Both the position numbers and the translations under genes were made by a program. From the sequence record MK327940.1: a DNA stretch of 64,000 bases; one strand, 5' to 3'. Every line of letters starts with the position of its first letter. Position 1 is the first letter of the stretch. This DNA comes from Escherichia phage vB_EcoM_G29. This document shows, in pieces, positions 11,749 to 47,378 of the stretch. The notes beneath the pieces were generated by a model that saw only the letters and a list, made by a program, of their open reading frames with translations, had not been told where the DNA came from and ran no database searches.

Positions 11749-12027
11749 TCAAAATGTAATTTCTAACCAATCACCATCACGCTGATCACTATTGACTTTA
11801 AAGCTAAATCCTTCTTTTCTCAGCCAATCACCAATTTCTTCAGTAATCAATTTATCGCGAGCAGTACAATAATAACTAAAATATGTTTTACCTTGTTCAG
11901 CTGCTTTATTAGCAAGTTCCGAAAAATCTTTAATAAAACACTCTAGCTTAAACTGTTTACTTTTAAGTGCTTTTTCACGTAATTGATTAGCAAAAGATTC
12001 ATTTTCATAAAGATCATACTGTTCCAT
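11749..12027 (-). CDS. hypothetical protein (positional equivalent of T4 24.2), 92 aa
   Basis: ORF with ATG start, in operon with rnlB. Confidence 0.6.
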   Translation of the reverse strand: MEQYDLYENESFANQLREKALKSKQFKLECFIKDFSELANKAAEQGKTYFSYYCTARDKLITEEIGDWLRKEGFSFKVNSDQRDGDWLEITF

Positions 12028-12229
12028 TTTTCACCTTTTTATTAATATGCCTTTTTCTATAGACAACTTTTTCTCGAGTTTCAAATTTATTCTTAGCAGT
12101 CATAGCTCGAGCCCATAATACAGCCACTTCTTTCGCCTGTAAGTTTAATTCACGAGCAATTTCAATGAATGACTTTCCAGACTCATGAAGAGTAAACACC
12201 ACAACCTCAGTTCTCATAATCAATCTCAT
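12014..12229 (-). CDS. small putative helix-turn-helix protein (positional equivalent of T4 24.3), 71 aa
   Basis: ORF; segment ESGKSFIEIARELNLQAKEV resembles an HTH motif. Confidence 0.55.
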   Translation of the reverse strand: MRLIMRTEVVVFTLHESGKSFIEIARELNLQAKEVAVLWARAMTAKNKFETREKVVYRKRHINKKVKNGTV

Positions 12230-12318: not shown

Positions 12319-13792
12319 TTATGGATAGGTATAGATGATACCAGTTTCTAAAGCAGTTTTATGAATGATGTATCCATTGCGTGATTCTTGAACATCAACT
12401 TCTGGATAGTCTTTCATCATCTTCTGAAGAGTGTAACGATGCAGGTAGTATTTACTATCTGGATCTTCAGTTTTCCAATCTTTACCTTCTTCGGTCATTT
12501 TTTGGATTTCATCCATAACCCACCAACCGCACCAGATATAAGCTGAAGTGCGATGTGGAAGAGGATGAACATAAGGCAATTCACCTTCTGGTTCCGGAGC
12601 AACTTTATCAGTTACCTGAACTTGGCCTGTTGCTTTAACTGTTTTACTATCATAGTCGGTTGCTGTAACGGTTGCAGTAACTTCAATAGTTTGACTTCCA
12701 ATAGATGATGTATCAACCGTGTATACATTAGTTGATTCTTCTACAGGAGAAGAATCTTTCTTCCATGAATATTCGATTTGTGCTTCTTCTGGAGCATCCG
12801 TAACATTAGCAGTAAATGTAGCCGAAGCATCTTGCTGAACGTTAATAGAAGGAGGAGTCAATGTAACCTGTGGATTCATTGTCTTCTTATTAACTGTTAA
12901 TGATACTTCATTAGAAGTAACTTCCTTTTCATTGTAATTTTCAGCCGTTACTTGGGCTACGCATTTAATTCTTTTTACTCCACTTGTAGTTGGAGTATAG
13001 TTAAATGTAGAGTTAGTTTCTCCACCAATTTGAGAATCATCTACATACCATTTATATGTAGCAGACGCTCCATCAGGTTGAGAAACCAAGGCAGCAGTAA
13101 ATTGAACTGGGGTTCCAATTACTCCAGCTGGAGGACTATCAGGAGTTACTGCCAAGGTAGTTGTCTGCGTCTTTTTATTAACAGTCAGTGACACTTCATT
13201 GGAAGTAACTTCCTTTGTATCATAATCTGTCGCGGTTACTTGAGCTACGCACTTAATTGTTTTAACTCCGCTTGCGTCAGGAGTGTAATTGAATGTAGTG
13301 CTAGTTGCTTCGCCCACAGGAGAACCGTCAACGTACCATTGATACGTAGCGTTTGCACCTGATGGCTGTGAAGCTAAGGCAGCCAACGTACCATTGATAC
13401 GTAGCGTTTGCACCTGATGGCTGTGAAGCTAAGGCAGCGGTAAATTCAATTGGAGTTCCAATCACTCCAGCATCAGGGCTACCAGGAGTTACTGCCAAAG
13501 TAGTTGTTTGTGTCTTATTTTGAACTGTGATAGTTGTACTAATTTCAGCTGTTTCAGGTTCAGATTCTGCAACTTGATTGGTTGCAACTACTTTAATAGT
13601 CTTTTGACCGGCAGGTCCTTTTAGTACATAACTAAAAGTTGCTGACGTTTCTTCCTGTGGAGCGTCGTCTACAGTCCAAGCATATGTAATAGGTCCATCT
13701 CCAGTTTGACCACTGGGTGTAGCAGTAAACTGCTGAGTCTGATCTATAACTCCAGTAGGTGTTTTAGGAGTTATATCAACTGTAAAAGCCAT
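12319..13792 (-). pseudogene. hoc: hoc (highly immunogenic outer capsid protein) disrupted by a 55-bp tandem duplication; split into track ORFs 13328-13792 and 12319-13413
   Basis: Tandem Ig-like repeats (TLAVTP...ATYQWYV) plus C-terminal capsid-binding region recalled from T4 Hoc; the peptide ALASQPSGANATYQWYV is encoded twice in different frames; the second ORF starts at GTG with no RBS. Confidence 0.85.
13329..13438. repeat. perfect 55-bp direct tandem duplication (2 copies: 13329-13383 and 13384-13438) inside hoc
   Basis: Both copies read caacgtaccattgatacgtagcgtttgcacctgatggctgtgaagctaaggcagc, identical base for base. Confidence 0.95.
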
Positions 13793-13801
13793 AAGTTATC
13801 C

Positions 13802-14482
13802 TTATTTTAATGTTACGAAAGAAGAATTACGTGTTTCACGAATTAGAACTGATCCGTCACGATTAATGTAGTAAATTAAGCTAAATAAAGTTTGGTGTGC
13901 CGACGCATGTTCAAAACTAGTTGGGTGAGATTTCCAATCTGGGGTTTCAGCAATCCATTGATAAATCCACCAAGGAACAGTGCAGAATCCTGGATTTTTT
14001 CCAATCAGCTGAAGATTCGGACTAAAGTTTTCCGGAAGAGTAAATACAGACGGCTTTTCAGATTCAATAATCTCAGCTACAGCCTGTTCGAATTTTTCTT
14101 CAACAAAAGGAGTATCTTCAATTAAAACAGTGGTATTTTCAGGAATTTTATCCGTTTCTACTACTTCAATTTTAATGTCAGATTTAACCGGAGAATCAAT
14201 CAGAAGTGCTGCCTCTGGATTGACTTCTTCATCGTCATATTTTAATCCGTCTGCGGCATCAGCAGCATCAATTAAGTCTTTAATAGATAACCCATCAGTC
14301 TCTGGCATAGGTTCACTAGCGAGCTTCTGGAGAGCTTCTTCAATATCATTAACGATATTATCAAAAGATTTATTCTTTTTGACCTTTATACCAAACTGTT
14401 CAGCATATTCAGCTAATTTAGCTTTAGCTTCTTTATTATCATCAAGAGCCTTCAGCTCTGCAATATAATCTTTATCTATCAT
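13802..14482 (-). CDS. inh: Inh, inhibitor of prohead protease gp21 (226 aa)
   Basis: 226-aa ORF matching T4 inh length and position next to hoc. Confidence 0.8.
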   Translation of the reverse strand: MIDKDYIAELKALDDNKEAKAKLAEYAEQFGIKVKKNKSFDNIVNDIEEALQKLASEPMPETDGLSIKDLIDAADAADGLKYDDEEVNPEAALLIDSPVKSDIKIEVVETDKIPENTTVLIEDTPFVEEKFEQAVAEIIESEKPSVFTLPENFSPNLQLIGKNPGFCTVPWWIYQWIAETPDWKSHPTSFEHASAHQTLFSLIYYINRDGSVLIRETRNSSFVTLK

Positions 14483-14503: not shown

Positions 14504-14532
14504 TAGATATATTTATTACATGGTATTTAGAC

Positions 14533-16044
14533 ATGACTGACATTAAAGTACATTTTTATGATTTTAGTCACGTGAGAATTGATTGCGAAGAAAGTACATT
14601 TCATGAACTCCGTGATTTCTTTAGCTTTGAAGCTGATGGGTATCGTTTTAATCCGAAGTACAAATATGGCCACTGGGATGGACGAATTCGTCTTTTAGAT
14701 TATAATCGCCTTCTTCCATTCGGTTTAGTCGGGCAAATTAAAAAGTTCTGCGATAACTTTGGCTATAAAGCCTGGATTGACCCACAGATTAACGAAAAAG
14801 AAGAATTATCAAGAAAAGATTTTGATGAATGGCTTTCTAAATTAGAAATCTATTCAGGAAATAAAAGAATTGAACCACACTGGTATCAAAAAGATGCAGT
14901 GTTCGAAGGATTAGTTAATCGTCGTAGAATTCTTAATCTTCCAACATCCGCTGGTAAATCTTTAATTCAAGCTTTGCTTGCGCGATATTATTTGGAAAAT
15001 TATGAAGGTAAAATTCTTATCATTGTTCCAACAACTGCTTTAACAACTCAGATGGCTGATGACTTTGTTGATTATCGTTTATTCAGTCATGCAATGATAA
15101 AGAAAATCGGTGGTGGAGCATCAAAAGATGATAAATATAAAAATGATGCACCAGTCGTTGTTGGTACATGGCAAACTGTAGTAAAACAACCGAAAGAATG
15201 GTTCTCACAGTTTGGAATGATGATGAATGATGAATGCCATCTTGCTACAGGAAAAAGTATTTCATCTATCATATCAGGTTTAAATAACTGCATGTTCAAA
15301 TTTGGTCTATCTGGTTCATTACGTGATGGCAAAGCCAATATCATGCAGTATGTTGGAATGTTTGGTGAAATATTTAAGCCAGTAACGACTTCTAAGTTAA
15401 TGGAAGATGGACAAGTAACTGAGCTAAAAATTAATAGTATTTTTCTTCGCTATCCCGATGAGTTCACTACTAAATTAAAGGGAAAAACTTATCAAGAAGA
15501 AATAAAAATTATTACGGGGCTTAGTAAAAGAAATAAATGGATCGCTAAATTGGCTATTAAGCTTGCACAAAAAGATGAAAACGCTTTTGTCATGTTTAAA
15601 CATGTATCACATGGTAAAGCTATTTTCGATTTAATTAAAAATGAATACGATAAAGTTTATTACGTATCAGGGGAAGTTGATACCGAAACCCGCAATATAA
15701 TGAAAACCTTAGCTGAAAATGGTAAAGGAATAATTATAGTAGCTAGTTATGGTGTATTTTCTACTGGTATTTCAGTTAAAAATCTGCATCACGTTGTTTT
15801 AGCGCACGGTGTTAAATCAAAAATCATTGTATTACAAACAATCGGTCGTGTATTACGTAAGCATGGTTCTAAAACAATCGCAACAGTCTGGGACCTCATA
15901 GATGACTGTGGTGTCAAGCCAAAATCTGCTAATACTAAAAAGAAATATGTTCACTTGAACTATCTTTTAAAACACGGCATTGATCGTATTCAGCGCTACG
16001 CAGATGAAAAATTTAATTACGTAATGAAAACAGTTAATTTATAA
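14533..16044 (+). CDS. uvsW: UvsW DNA/RNA-DNA helicase (503 aa)
   Basis: Walker A (PTSAGKS) and DECH box; T4 uvsW length and position; TATAAATA upstream. Confidence 0.95.
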   Translation: MTDIKVHFYDFSHVRIDCEESTFHELRDFFSFEADGYRFNPKYKYGHWDGRIRLLDYNRLLPFGLVGQIKKFCDNFGYKAWIDPQINEKEELSRKDFDEWLSKLEIYSGNKRIEPHWYQKDAVFEGLVNRRRILNLPTSAGKSLIQALLARYYLENYEGKILIIVPTTALTTQMADDFVDYRLFSHAMIKKIGGGASKDDKYKNDAPVVVGTWQTVVKQPKEWFSQFGMMMNDECHLATGKSISSIISGLNNCMFKFGLSGSLRDGKANIMQYVGMFGEIFKPVTTSKLMEDGQVTELKINSIFLRYPDEFTTKLKGKTYQEEIKIITGLSKRNKWIAKLAIKLAQKDENAFVMFKHVSHGKAIFDLIKNEYDKVYYVSGEVDTETRNIMKTLAENGKGIIIVASYGVFSTGISVKNLHHVVLAHGVKSKIIVLQTIGRVLRKHGSKTIATVWDLIDDCGVKPKSANTKKKYVHLNYLLKHGIDRIQRYADEKFNYVMKTVNL

Positions 16045-24896: not shown

Positions 24897-24950
24897 TCCT
24901 CATGTTATGTCAGTAAGACTACTATAACACAACACGAGGGACTTGTAAAC
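24897..24950. repeat. 54-bp dispersed repeat copy 1 (early promoter plus leader); copy 2 at 40821-40874
   Basis: 53 of 54 nt identical (tcctcatgttatgtcagtaagactact[a/g]taacacaacacgagggacttgtaaac). Confidence 0.9.
24921..24950 (-). promoter_or_regulatory. early promoter (GTTTAC-N18-TATAGT) for the alt.-3-position ORF
   Basis: Minus strand GTTTAC overlapping the stop of the Alt paralog, TATAGT 18 nt downstream, leader with GAGG before ATG. Confidence 0.6.
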
Positions 24951-27007
24951 TACATCTTGAACTTTTTAGACATTCCGTTGATGTTAACCAAAGAAGCTAA
25001 GATTTGAGAAACTTCGTTTTCCTCTTCTTTTGATTCTTCTACAAGGAATTGATTAAATCCAGCCATTGGACGAACTTCACCAGTTTCCATTAGATGGTCG
25101 CCATCATATACTGATTCTTCTAATTGTTCAGAAGGAGGAACGATTGTACCTTCGATTAGATACTTGTTATAAGCAGTTTCTTTCATAAAGTAAGTACTTA
25201 CTTTATTAATCTTCAGTAAAATTCCACGTGGTAGAATAACTTCAGCTTCTGACGGAAATCCTGATAAATGACCCGGAACGATAACTTTGATTCGCTCAGC
25301 TCCTTTAATTACCATACCCACGCTAGTTTCAGCATCTTCATTAGCATATGTAGAATGACTACCCATATGCATCAAATCTTCTGCATCAACGGAACCTTCT
25401 CCTTCACCAGAAAATACTGCGCCGGAATCATCTAGAGCCATATAGTTTTTACCATGCTCACCGAAGATATTTGGTTTAAGCGATGTGGATACGAAGTTCT
25501 TGAAATAGAACATTTTATTTTCAATGTTATGACGCAAAGTTTTAAAGGTAACTTCTTGTCCACGGTAAAGTGTAGTTCCTGGAGGAAGAACTGAACCTTT
25601 AGCGAATGCAGAATCAAGCGTCTCAATATGTTTAATAGCTCGTTCCATATATTCTTCACGGGTAGAATCTGGTTTACCCAAAAGGAACGAGTTCATTTCA
25701 ACATATGAATCTGCACAATAATCTTCAATTACATCAGATTCAGCTTGAGTTAATCCTTTTGGAGTTACTTCAGTGCTTGCGTATTCATATGCCTGAGCAG
25801 CAGATTCATTAATCAATTTATAAATGCCATTCATGACAAATTGAATAATAGCTGTCTTTTCATCTGGCGTAGCTTTAGAACCTTTAACCAAATCATTGAT
25901 AATTTTCTTAATAACATCAAAGCTATTAGAAATATTAATATCAGCAAGATCGCTTAAAATTTTATCAGTCTTATAATCAAAGAATTCTTTATTCTTTAAA
26001 TATTCTTGAGAACCTTGATATGTTATATCGCTCTGTAACTTGATAGATGGATCACGTAAACGTGCATGGGCTAATGCAATATGATTTCGGAAGCTTTCGA
26101 GTTCATAATCACTAGATTTAAAACGAGAAGCGCTTCTCATACCGCCTATAGCTCCTTTGCTGAAGTTTGAACCAATTTGAATAACGCCAGAGTTCATTGG
26201 TCCTTCTGCTTTATACACCGGAACTTTAGATTCAAACTCTTGATATTTCTTAGCAGCGAAGCTATCACCCTGAAGTGAAGCATCAACAGTAGAATATTGA
26301 GCTTGTGCTGCTAATCGACGACTAATTTTAGTTTTCTGAATAACAGCTTGGTCCGTGCGCTTATCATTTTCTAAAGCAATAGAAGCAGCAACAGCAACAG
26401 CTTTAGGAACAGCATTACCTGTTTTAACATCTACATAAACATCACCAACCTTTGATTCAACTTTTGTGAATAACTCAGTTGAAATAGGAGGTACACCTGG
26501 AATGTCTTCTAAATTGGCATTTTTACGATAAACCATAATATATGCGTACTTTTTATCATAATCCCAGATTTCCTTTAAAAGAACATATCGACCTGCTCCT
26601 TTAGTACGTACTAAACGGTCAGCAATAACTTGCATTTGACGAGCAGCGCCATTTGTTTTACTCTTTAGTACGCGGAATAAGCATGCATCAATTTTATACT
26701 GTTTCATTGTTTGAAGAGCAGTATCAAAAACAGCGTTAATGACGCCAATTGGATTTCCACCCAAGTTTCTAAGTTTAACCAGTGATAATTTCTCGTTGAC
26801 ACCTATCATTACGATATGCATCATTTTATCGCCCGGCTTAACGTTTTTATTTGTATCACCTCCAGAGGTGTATGTACAAAATCTAAATCCAGGAAGCACG
26901 CTTTCTTCGCCGGCTTGAATAGCAAAAATTTGAGGTATTTTATGCTTAGGATTTAAGTTAACAACCGGCGCCGAAGCGCCGTCAAATAATTCTGTAATAA
27001 GTTCCAT
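24950..27007 (-). CDS. Alt-like ADP-ribosyltransferase paralog (685 aa)
   Basis: Shares the alt N-terminus (MELITELFD...CTYTSGGDTN...KIDAC...GRYVLLKE.WDYDKKYAY) and R / S-T-S / E-x-E ART motifs (LYRGQ, FVSTSL, SEAEVILPRG); central region divergent. Confidence 0.85.
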   Translation of the reverse strand: MELITELFDGASAPVVNLNPKHKIPQIFAIQAGEESVLPGFRFCTYTSGGDTNKNVKPGDKMMHIVMIGVNEKLSLVKLRNLGGNPIGVINAVFDTALQTMKQYKIDACLFRVLKSKTNGAARQMQVIADRLVRTKGAGRYVLLKEIWDYDKKYAYIMVYRKNANLEDIPGVPPISTELFTKVESKVGDVYVDVKTGNAVPKAVAVAASIALENDKRTDQAVIQKTKISRRLAAQAQYSTVDASLQGDSFAAKKYQEFESKVPVYKAEGPMNSGVIQIGSNFSKGAIGGMRSASRFKSSDYELESFRNHIALAHARLRDPSIKLQSDITYQGSQEYLKNKEFFDYKTDKILSDLADINISNSFDVIKKIINDLVKGSKATPDEKTAIIQFVMNGIYKLINESAAQAYEYASTEVTPKGLTQAESDVIEDYCADSYVEMNSFLLGKPDSTREEYMERAIKHIETLDSAFAKGSVLPPGTTLYRGQEVTFKTLRHNIENKMFYFKNFVSTSLKPNIFGEHGKNYMALDDSGAVFSGEGEGSVDAEDLMHMGSHSTYANEDAETSVGMVIKGAERIKVIVPGHLSGFPSEAEVILPRGILLKINKVSTYFMKETAYNKYLIEGTIVPPSEQLEESVYDGDHLMETGEVRPMAGFNQFLVEESKEEENEVSQILASLVNINGMSKKFKM

Positions 27008-27010
27008 GAT

Positions 27011-29062
27011 TTATCCTTGAACGAACTTGTAAGGCATGTTTGTAATATCTATGCAAGACGCAATAATTCCAAGAGATGATTCTACTTTCTGTTTAACATT
27101 TGATGAAACAAATGATGCAAAGTCAACTCTATCTTCTATATCACCTGTCATTGTAACTACTTCGCCGGTTTCCATTAAACGGTCACCGTCATAAATTACT
27201 GATTCGGTGAGTTCTTCGGTGGTCATAACTTCAGCTTGAATAAGCTTGTTGTTAGTTTTGACTGTTCCATCATTGTAAGATGCATCAGTTATTTTATTAA
27301 CTTTGACCATTAATCCACGTGGCAAAATGACTTCCATTTCATTTGAAGGCGCTAAACTTCCACCGGGTAAAACAACATTGACTTTATCAGCCCCAGTAAT
27401 AACCCATCCAATTCCGACTAAATTATCGCTAGAATTAACAAGCCCTTCATCATTTTTATCGATAGAAATGTTTAGACGCTTTTCATCTGGTAAAACACCA
27501 ACAGCTGAATCAGTCATCCAAGTACCAAAAATGTTTGGATATAATGATGTTGATACAAAATTTCTAAAATAAAAAACTCGATTTTTTACCATTGCTTCGT
27601 ATATTGAAGGTAACATTCGTTGTGAACGATACAAAGTAATACCTTTTGGTAATCGTTCACCATTTTTAAAGGCTGAATCTAAATTATCAATAGCTTTTTC
27701 TATGTCAGATGCTGTCAAAATACTTGTACGCTCATCTGGATTATATAATCCCAAAAGAGCATTATTTATGTCTACATATCCTGAACCTACGTATTCACGA
27801 ATTCCGCGTTTTTGTGCTGGTGTGTATTTAGATGAATCTTTATTTTCGACTATAGGATGTAATGACCATCCAGCTGTAAGAGCATATCCACGTAATTCTC
27901 TTCGAATAATCTTTGTTTTTATTGCATTCCAAGAATTTTGTACTAACTCATTTGCAGCATCTTGGTTTAAATGCGAATGTTTGTTAATATTTCTTTCAAA
28001 CCAAGCACCTTTATATTTTTCTAAAGTATTATCGACGATAGAAGCAATAGTTTCTAAAGTTTTTATTGAAGTAATAGATTCTTTTCGTAATTTTTCTAAA
28101 GCTTTATTTTTTATTTCTGCATTAATAATGGATTCTTTATCTTCAGGAATTATAGAAGCTTCTCTGAATGCCATCCCAGCTGTAACACTGCTAAGAGCAT
28201 TCTCTAGTGCAAATCCTGAAGTAGAAATTACCGTTAATTCATTAGAATCAGAAATTAAAGGCGCATCAGCGGGTTTATTTAATTCTGCTGCTGAAGCCTC
28301 AAATTTTTGAAACATCGGTGTTTCAAATCTAGAAGATTCCAATGACTGACTTTGTGCAATTGCTCTACGGGAAATTTTAACTTTAACGATTACAGCTTGG
28401 TCAGAACGTTTATCATTTTCTTGTGCAATAGATGCTGCAATTGCCTCATTTTTGGTTACTTGAGCTCCGGTATCTTTATTGATATAAACATCACCGACCT
28501 TCGATTCAACTTTAGTAAAGAGCTCGGTACTAATTTCCGGAACTCCTGGAATGTCTTCTAGTGATACATTTTTGCGATGTATAAGAATATATGCATACTT
28601 TTTATCATAATCCCAGAGTTCCTTAAGAAGGACGTATCTGCCACCTGAACGACTACGGATAAGTCTATCAGCAATAACTTGAATTTGTCGAGCTTGATCA
28701 GCGGTTTTAGACTTAAGAATACGAAGCATACAAGCATCAATTTTATACTGACGCATTGTTTGCATTGCAACAGTAAAAACTGAATTGATATAATTAATTG
28801 GGCTTGGACCAAGACCTTTTAATTTAGCAATTGAACCTTTAGCGGTTAATGTAAAAGGAACAATATGCATCATTTTATCGCCCATTTTTAAATCGCGATT
28901 AGTATCACCTCCAGATGTATAGGTACATAAACGAAAGCCTGGTTGTTCAATTGCATCATCAACATGAACTGAAAAAATTTGCGGTATTTTCTTCTTTGGA
29001 TTTAAGTTTGTAATCGGAAGAGTAGTATCTTCGTCAAATAATTCTGTAATAAGTTCCATCAT
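27011..29062 (-). CDS. alt: Alt ADP-ribosyltransferase, head-packaged (683 aa)
   Basis: 683-aa ORF adjacent to gene 30 as in T4; ART motifs LYRSQ, FVSTSL, NEMEVILPRG; late TATAAATA upstream. Confidence 0.9.
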   Translation of the reverse strand: MMELITELFDEDTTLPITNLNPKKKIPQIFSVHVDDAIEQPGFRLCTYTSGGDTNRDLKMGDKMMHIVPFTLTAKGSIAKLKGLGPSPINYINSVFTVAMQTMRQYKIDACMLRILKSKTADQARQIQVIADRLIRSRSGGRYVLLKELWDYDKKYAYILIHRKNVSLEDIPGVPEISTELFTKVESKVGDVYINKDTGAQVTKNEAIAASIAQENDKRSDQAVIVKVKISRRAIAQSQSLESSRFETPMFQKFEASAAELNKPADAPLISDSNELTVISTSGFALENALSSVTAGMAFREASIIPEDKESIINAEIKNKALEKLRKESITSIKTLETIASIVDNTLEKYKGAWFERNINKHSHLNQDAANELVQNSWNAIKTKIIRRELRGYALTAGWSLHPIVENKDSSKYTPAQKRGIREYVGSGYVDINNALLGLYNPDERTSILTASDIEKAIDNLDSAFKNGERLPKGITLYRSQRMLPSIYEAMVKNRVFYFRNFVSTSLYPNIFGTWMTDSAVGVLPDEKRLNISIDKNDEGLVNSSDNLVGIGWVITGADKVNVVLPGGSLAPSNEMEVILPRGLMVKVNKITDASYNDGTVKTNNKLIQAEVMTTEELTESVIYDGDRLMETGEVVTMTGDIEDRVDFASFVSSNVKQKVESSLGIIASCIDITNMPYKFVQG

Positions 29063-46521: not shown

Positions 46522-47378
46522 ATTGCCATTTTCCCTTTAATTGCTGGATGCGATTCATAATTTTCAAGGATAAAATCTTTCGGTTTCATGTATTCAGTTA
46601 ACCAGTAAAGCTGTGTTTCGGTGTCACAATTTCCAAACTCTATAGGCCAATCAATTTTAAGTTCACATAGTTCTTTAGGCTCACGACGTAAAATTTCTTT
46701 ACATTGCTCAGTATGATTCATATAGATGTGAGTATTACCACCAGAAAATATCAAATCTCCTGGGATAAGATTACACATCTTAGCCACAATATGCGTCAAG
46801 GCAGCGTACGAGGCAATGTTGAATGGCAATCCCAAGAAAACATCTACACTTCTTTGGTACCATTGTAAATCAAGATAACCATTACGCACATTAAACTGAT
46901 AGAACATATGACAGGGCGGTAATGCCATTTGATTGATTTCAGCTGGATTCCATGCTGAAACGATTTGACGTCGATCAGTTGGTAATTTTTTAATACGATC
47001 AATAGTTTCAACTAATTGATCCACACCGCCGAAATCACGCCATTGTTTACCGTATATAGGACCAAGTTCACCACTATGATATCCTAGGTCTTTAGCCTGG
47101 TTTTCATAGTTATCGTCCCAAATAGTTTTACCTTGAATAAGACTACCATGTGTGCGAAGACGTAAATCATTAACATTGGTAGAACCGGAAATAAACCATA
47201 GAAGCTCAGCAATGCATGCATTCCACGCAAGCTTCTTAGTTGTTACCGCAGGAAAACCTTTAGTTAAATCCCAACGTAATTTAGTACCGAACAAAGCAAT
47301 TGTTCCTGTGCCTGTTCGGTCATCGGTTTCATAGCCATTTTCAAAAATGTCTTTAATTAAATCTTGGTATTGTTTCAT
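46518..47378 (-). CDS. td: thymidylate synthase, uninterrupted (286 aa)
   Basis: Continuous 286-aa ORF with ThyA motifs (PPCH, DxxLGxPFN); no group I intron. Confidence 0.97.

Follow-up and report, generated by a model that had tools for sequence, protein, structure and literature searches.

The hoc gene in this stretch of phage DNA is interrupted by an exact 55-bp tandem duplication, which we read, with a probability of about 0.93, as the terminal overlap of a SPAdes contig built at k = 55, left untrimmed and made internal when the genome was rotated, and not as a mutation. We regard the tandem as an artefact because its length equals the published assembler k-mer, because the record of Escherichia phage vB_EcoM_G4500 (MK327945.1) holds a single copy at this site and because sister records bear the same signature. 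The window is the whole 64,000-nt stretch that was analysed, and the coordinates below are positions in it unless they are given as record positions.

The hoc locus and its two reading frames

At 13329-13438 the unit CAACGTACCATTGATACGTAGCGTTTGCACCTGATGGCTGTGAAGCTAAGGCAGC is followed head to tail by a second copy of itself, with neither mismatches nor indels, and the junction from copy to copy reads GGCTGTGAAGCTAAGGCAGC followed directly by CAACGTACCATTGATACG. Tandem Repeats Finder (TRF) describes it with a period of 55, 2.0 copies, 100% matches and a score of 220, and finds no other tandem repeat scoring at least 60 within the 64-kb window. By our own arithmetic, an exact adjacent repeat of 55 nt is expected with a chance of about 4^-55 per position, or about 5e-29 per window, and therefore the repeat did not arise by chance. 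Since 55 is not divisible by 3, hoc appears frameshifted and is read as two ORFs (Table 1). The 5′ fragment starts at an ATG (13792) preceded by TAAGGA and runs out of frame into an 18-aa tail, GCLSFTAIRCKRYVSMVR. The 3′ fragment shares the peptide ALASQPSGANATYQWYV with it, carries a C-terminal domain that matches the C-terminus of T4 Hoc, and opens on a GTG with no Shine-Dalgarno-like motif in the 30 nt upstream (TTACCGCTGCCTTAGCTTCACAGCCATCAG). When one 55-bp copy is removed, the resulting ORF is identical to the annotated Hoc of G4500 (QBO65873).

These structural features had been put forward in a sequence-only reading of the window, and they stand. Both the sequence and TRF bear out the exact tandem, and the frameshift into two ORFs was found as described. 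The N-terminal ORF was rightly said to end 18 codons into the second copy; the downstream ORF does re-encode the peptide that it was said to repeat, and does so from a GTG that lacks a recognisable ribosome-binding site. The prediction that deleting one copy would give a single 472-aa Hoc was likewise correct.

Table 1. Features of the window and of related records. Positions are those of the window unless a record or hoc nucleotide is named.
Feature	Position	Strand	Description
Whole hoc locus	12319-13792	-	gives a 472-aa Hoc once one 55-bp copy is removed
hoc 5′ fragment ORF	13328-13792	-	154 aa, ATG start; 136 true Hoc residues plus 18-aa out-of-frame tail
hoc 3′ fragment ORF	12319-13413	-	364 aa, GTG start; remaining Ig-like domains and C-terminal domain
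Copy 1 of the exact 55-bp unit	13329-13383	none	counterpart of the sole copy in MK327945.1 (record 109329-109383)
Copy 2 of the exact 55-bp unit	13384-13438	none	read as the surplus, untrimmed k = 55 overlap, the choice between copies 1 and 2 being arbitrary
inh (prohead protease inhibitor)	13802-14482	-	neighbour transcribed ahead of hoc; supports T4 synteny
DUF2774 gene (T4 24.3 position)	12014-12229	-	neighbour after hoc; supports T4 synteny
ORF adjacent to the next	24950-27007	-	about 685 aa
ORF adjacent to the previous	27011-29059	-	about 685 aa
Segment R, 55 nt	27962-28016	none	single in the window, duplicated in MK327945.1 around 122 nt; reciprocal control
G4507 join artefact	MK327946.1 / NC_054919.1, within record 76126-77359		55 nt - adapter 122 nt - 55 nt; inside gp5
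G10400 join artefact	MK327937.1, about 110018		adapter between exact 55-nt repeats; intergenic
KAW1E185 join artefact	MK373781.1 / NC_054922.1, about 146327		adapter between exact 55-nt repeats; intergenic
Split hoc, MZ501066.1	hoc nt 756		+G
Split hoc, MZ234018.1	hoc nt 475		-A
Split hoc, OR887633.1	hoc nt 276		+A

The restored protein was compared with T4 Hoc (PDB 5VF3 chain Z, 5vf3_Z) using phmmer, giving an E value of 5.3e-221; residues 1-124 align to T4 Hoc 1-124 and residues 189-472 to 93-376. It also matches phrog_1149 ('Hoc-like head decoration', E = 4e-139), and the Pfam matches in the Hoc ORFs are PKD, Ig_2, Ig_3 and I-set. Like T4 Hoc (5VF3 chain Z, 8T1X and others), it comes from the same genomic position and has Ig/PKD-like domains and a conserved C-terminal domain, and on these comparisons it is an unambiguous T4 Hoc orthologue. 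It is longer than the T4 protein (472 aa vs 376 aa) by one additional Ig-like domain of 96 aa, which stems from an in-frame internal repeat of 288 nt (74-77% identity; 74% for 12881-13095 vs 13169-13383). Most of the closest Tequatrovirus records among the matches listed span the same 1646 bp as the single-copy form, which suggests that they share the long hoc.

The T4 gene order at this locus is 24 - rnlB - 24.2 - 24.3 - hoc - inh - uvsW. The identical regions of G4500 and G4507 are annotated as capsid vertex protein, RNA ligase, hypothetical protein, DUF2774, Hoc, Inh and helicase, and judged by its neighbours (Table 1) the hoc locus lies in T4 synteny. In T4, Hoc is a highly immunogenic outer capsid protein that binds the centre of gp23 hexamers on the mature capsid; it is non-essential, and hoc-null mutants have long been known. 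Those classical mutants carry real mutations, whereas the apparent null described here is read as an artefact.

Comparison with the G4500 record

Aligned to MK327945.1, the window falls into three blocks, none of which has a mismatch or a gap and which jointly account for all 64,000 nt. The window starts at position 96001 of that record, which is consistent with both sequences having been given the same chosen origin. Only two differences separate them; both are structural and each involves an exact 55-nt repeat. One is the extra 55 bp in hoc, where MK327945.1 has a single copy. The hoc region is 100% identical to those of G4500 and G4507, whose records span 1646 bp vs 1701 bp for the window.

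The other difference lies where the alignment blocks overlap by exactly 55 nt (segment R in Table 1) and MK327945.1 is the longer by 177 nt. At this second site, about 123907-124138 in the record and inside an Alt-like ADP-ribosyltransferase gene, MK327945.1 reads R(55) - 122 nt - R(55). The 122-nt insert is read-through of Nextera transposase/P7 adapter: CTGTCTCTTATACACATCTCCGAGCCCACGAGAC, then an index of 8 nt, then ATCTCGTATGCCGTCTTCTGCTTG, and lastly a stretch rich in poly-A. The extra 177 nt preserve the reading frame, and the deposited Alt-like protein (QBO65890.1) is 741 aa long, 59 aa of which are junk ('...FFFFFFFFFLLCGF...SEMCIRDRY...'). The corresponding ORF in the window is clean, with 682 aa, and identical to the G4507 homologue. 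On its sequence the Alt-like site in MK327945.1 is plainly the join of two contig ends.

Each of the two sequences has a 55-nt duplication at its own site and a single copy at the other's, and by their otherwise perfect identity they would be two determinations of one genome. A record search with the tail-fibre region of the window returned 100% matches in G4500 only, with G9062 nearly so. The single hoc copy in MK327945.1 is strong evidence against a genuine duplication but not absolute proof, because a genuine 55-bp tandem would form a collapsible loop in a de Bruijn graph at k = 55.

G4507 is a mosaic relative of the window, 94-100% identical depending on the block. Compared with it, the window and G4500 have no homing endonuclease gene in the inh-uvsW interval (14519-14539), and the window is without an insertion that contains a homing endonuclease and splits thymidylate synthase (46522-46831). 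These homing endonuclease differences between the window and G4507 are ordinary presence/absence polymorphism of mobile elements. The G4507 counterparts of the two adjacent ORFs of about 685 aa are both annotated as Alt-like RNA polymerase ADP-ribosyltransferases, and the pair look like tandem paralogues.

Sister genomes from the same study

Records were searched for internal adapter using a 34-nt Nextera sequence, and G9062, a complete and adapter-free genome, was scanned for exact tandem repeats. Internal adapter was found in four T4-like records of the study from which G4500 came, namely G4500, G4507, G10400 and KAW1E185 (Table 1), and in all four the 122 nt of junk lie between two exact direct copies of a 55-nt sequence. 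In G4507 the baseplate hub subunit/tail lysozyme gp5 is split by it into two CDSs, KMC11_gp260 and KMC11_gp261. The Nextera query also matched 30-odd unrelated phage records, mostly at or near the record end.

The G9062 genome (MK373779.1 / NC_054920.1, 168,670 bp) contains exactly one exact tandem repeat, a 55 bp x 2 repeat at record positions 93652-93761. There it cuts the neck protein gp14 short at 185 aa, and the shortened CDS is followed by an unannotated gap of roughly 310 nt. Removing one copy yields a 256-aa gp14 that is identical to the G4500 gp14 at 256/256 residues, and the 55-mer concerned is single-copy in G4500. Gene product 14 is essential for head-tail joining in T4. A plaque-forming phage therefore cannot carry the G9062 duplication.

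The repeat is thus exactly 55 nt long at hoc and at five sister junctions, four with adapter and one clean. What the window shares with the join artefacts of G4500, G4507, G10400, KAW1E185 and G9062 is the 55-nt length and, presumably, the laboratory pipeline. Damage to a gene is common to hoc, gp5 of G4507, gp14 of G9062 and, through its 59 aa of junk, the Alt-like gene of G4500. G9062 is the exact analogue of the hoc case, being clean, 55 bp long, tandem and frameshifting. Four of the five sister junctions differ in that 122 nt of Nextera read-through separate the copies; the hoc tandem has no such insert, which points to reads trimmed of adapter or to a re-assembly. The clean adapter site and the shared coordinate origin of the window would likewise suit a re-assembly or later version of G4500 produced once adapters had been removed.

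Assembler k-mer and contig ends

In the source study of G4500, Illumina genomes were assembled with SPAdes "(55kmer)" from MiSeq 600-cycle reads into a single contig per phage, and the T4-like genomes were re-arranged after assembly (Korf et al. 2019, PMC6563267). The length of the hoc repeat equals the k of 55 used there. De Bruijn assemblers write out a circular path as one linear contig, with an overlap of k between its two ends. Hence, for a circularly permuted T4-like genome assembled by SPAdes at k = 55, the last 55 bases of the contig would repeat the first 55. If the contig were then cut and its old ends re-joined to obtain a conventional start (rIIA in the G9062 record), an overlap left untrimmed at the join would become an internal, exact, head-to-tail duplication of 55 bp. 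The join could fall anywhere in the genome, and would lie inside hoc by happenstance. We infer that the window's own sequence was produced in this way, by SPAdes at k = 55 followed by rotation.

Contig-end overlaps of this kind have been described (Philipson et al. 2018, PMC5923482), and the hoc tandem resembles them in being an exact duplicate with the length of the largest k used, free of mismatches and of boundary microhomology, at an arbitrary genome position. The described overlaps lie at record ends, whereas the hoc tandem is internal, as would follow from rotation without trimming; because of this step it has come to resemble a frameshifting tandem duplication inside a gene. The copies at hoc are identical and adjacent, their length is k, the genome is of the circular/permuted type and re-oriented, the unit is single-copy elsewhere and the pattern recurs in other records. 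Moreover, repeats of ~79 bp have been reported in short-read phage assemblies, where Sanger sequencing revealed artefacts in most of the phages (Elek et al. 2023, PMC10438801).

Searches for the junction and other split hoc genes

We searched for the duplicated arrangement in other sequences. Among the records listed for the hoc region (680 matching) and for an 80-nt junction query (107 matching), none contains the hoc junction in one piece; all of those listed split into two aligned segments, as is consistent with one copy only. A 38-nt junction sequence had no exact match in IMG/VR, JGI metagenome contigs or GTDB genome contigs, and a protein look-up did not return the truncated 154-aa product. 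At the endpoints of the duplication we found 0 nt of microhomology (..ACCGT/CAACG.. and ..GCAGC/GGTAA..; T vs C and C vs G). Short homologies at the endpoints are typical of illegitimate recombination, albeit not obligatory. Had microhomology been present at the hoc duplication boundaries, it would have favoured a real recombination event. Of the two marks by which a genuine allele was to be recognised, that is, the junction in an independent isolate, assembly or metagenome, and homology at the endpoints, we observed neither.

Hoc is annotated as two CDSs in three other deposited Tequatrovirus genomes (MZ501066.1, MZ234018.1 and OR887633.1). FriedrichMiescher/Bas39 ('Hoc part 1/part 2'), vB_EcoM-101117BS1 and vb_GEC_SH_GT thus resemble the window in having hoc in two CDSs, but their lesions are single-nucleotide indels, in short homopolymer (G or A) runs and at different positions (Table 1), as opposed to the 55-bp duplication of the window. 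We considered whether these records represent a recurrent natural allele and rejected this, the +/-1-nt homopolymer indels being unrelated to the 55-bp lesion.

Alternative explanations

The sequence-only reading had not decided between a real null allele and an assembly or sequencing artefact. The second is now strongly favoured by the match to k = 55, by MK327945.1 and by the sister records, while the first is not upheld. If the null allele were real, a 55-bp tandem duplication would have arisen in the propagated or natural G4500 stock, giving a hoc-null phage, and the match to k would be coincidental. The 154-aa fragment is without the capsid-binding domain of the C-terminus, the 364-aa fragment would be translated poorly or not at all owing to its GTG start without a Shine-Dalgarno motif, and the capsids would be Hoc-less. 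Such a phage would be viable, as Hoc is non-essential in T4; frameshifted hoc genes occur in other deposited Tequatrovirus genomes, and the window differs from MK327945.1 and so is an independent sequence determination. Nevertheless, we consider this very unlikely. A real duplication would have the length of the published assembler k with a probability of only about 1 in 100 a priori (our own estimate), the same signature is seen at five sister junctions, including one in a gene essential in T4, and 64 kb of sequence holds 0 other differences from G4500. The endpoints without microhomology and a junction found nowhere else, be it among the records listed, IMG/VR, JGI metagenomes or GTDB genomes, weigh in the same direction. 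The proposal that hoc is broken biologically, through laboratory passage or through selection against an immunogenic protein, finds no support for the same reasons. Among artefacts, a misassembly provoked by the repetitive Ig domains had been proposed and is probably not the cause. We rejected these repeats as its source: at 74-77% identity, the 288-nt repeat is too divergent to confuse a graph at k = 55, and therefore it was probably by chance that the contig ends fell in hoc.

It is extremely unlikely, in our view, that the duplication is real and was always present in G4500, with MK327945.1 having collapsed it as a self-loop at k = 55 and hence being wrong at hoc. De Bruijn assemblers are known to collapse repeats of at least k, and MK327945.1 is demonstrably imperfect, with adapter junk inside. 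However, this would need a biological duplication of exactly k length by coincidence, and the hoc region of G4507 is 100% identical and single-copy, as are all other records examined. Moreover, MiSeq 600-cycle reads are long enough to span a 110-bp tandem, and read-based repeat resolution would normally succeed there. One might also imagine that the duplication is real and that full-length Hoc is still made, either by a bypass of 55 nt between identical codons, as in gene 60, or by programmed frameshifting. T4 gene 60 is the case of a 50-nt translational bypass, and in bypass of this type a stop codon directly follows the take-off codon. All that speaks for recoding in hoc is the formal possibility that each codon of copy 1 recurs 55 nt further downstream, where it could serve for landing. 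The first copy has no stop in the frame of the 154-aa ORF, the first in-frame stop coming at the end of the second copy, and we rejected both forms of recoding because the first copy offers no stop close to where take-off might occur. Conservation is not possible for a junction that occurs in no other sequence, all of the evidence for an artefact applies equally, and the chance that Hoc is rescued in this way is negligible. The untrimmed overlap of contig ends is thus the reading that we adopt.

Implications

Taken together, the records of one study contain a systematic class of error, and two of those affected are RefSeq reference genomes. Its members are 55-nt duplications, all of them exact and some with Nextera adapter, by which real genes are broken or padded, as in gp5 of NC_054919.1, gp14 of NC_054920.1 and the Alt-like ADP-ribosyltransferase of MK327945.1. 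We suggest a simple, general screen that picks out exact duplicates, lying in tandem or nearly so, of the same length as a k in common use by assemblers (55, 77, 99 or 127). The practical value of the finding is a curation flag for the window sequence and for several GenBank/RefSeq records. For the phage itself, there is no good evidence that it is Hoc-less, and the duplication would not be a real biological feature. Recognising this averts a false account of a hoc pseudogene, under selection against an immunogenic protein, that would have been built on an assembly join.
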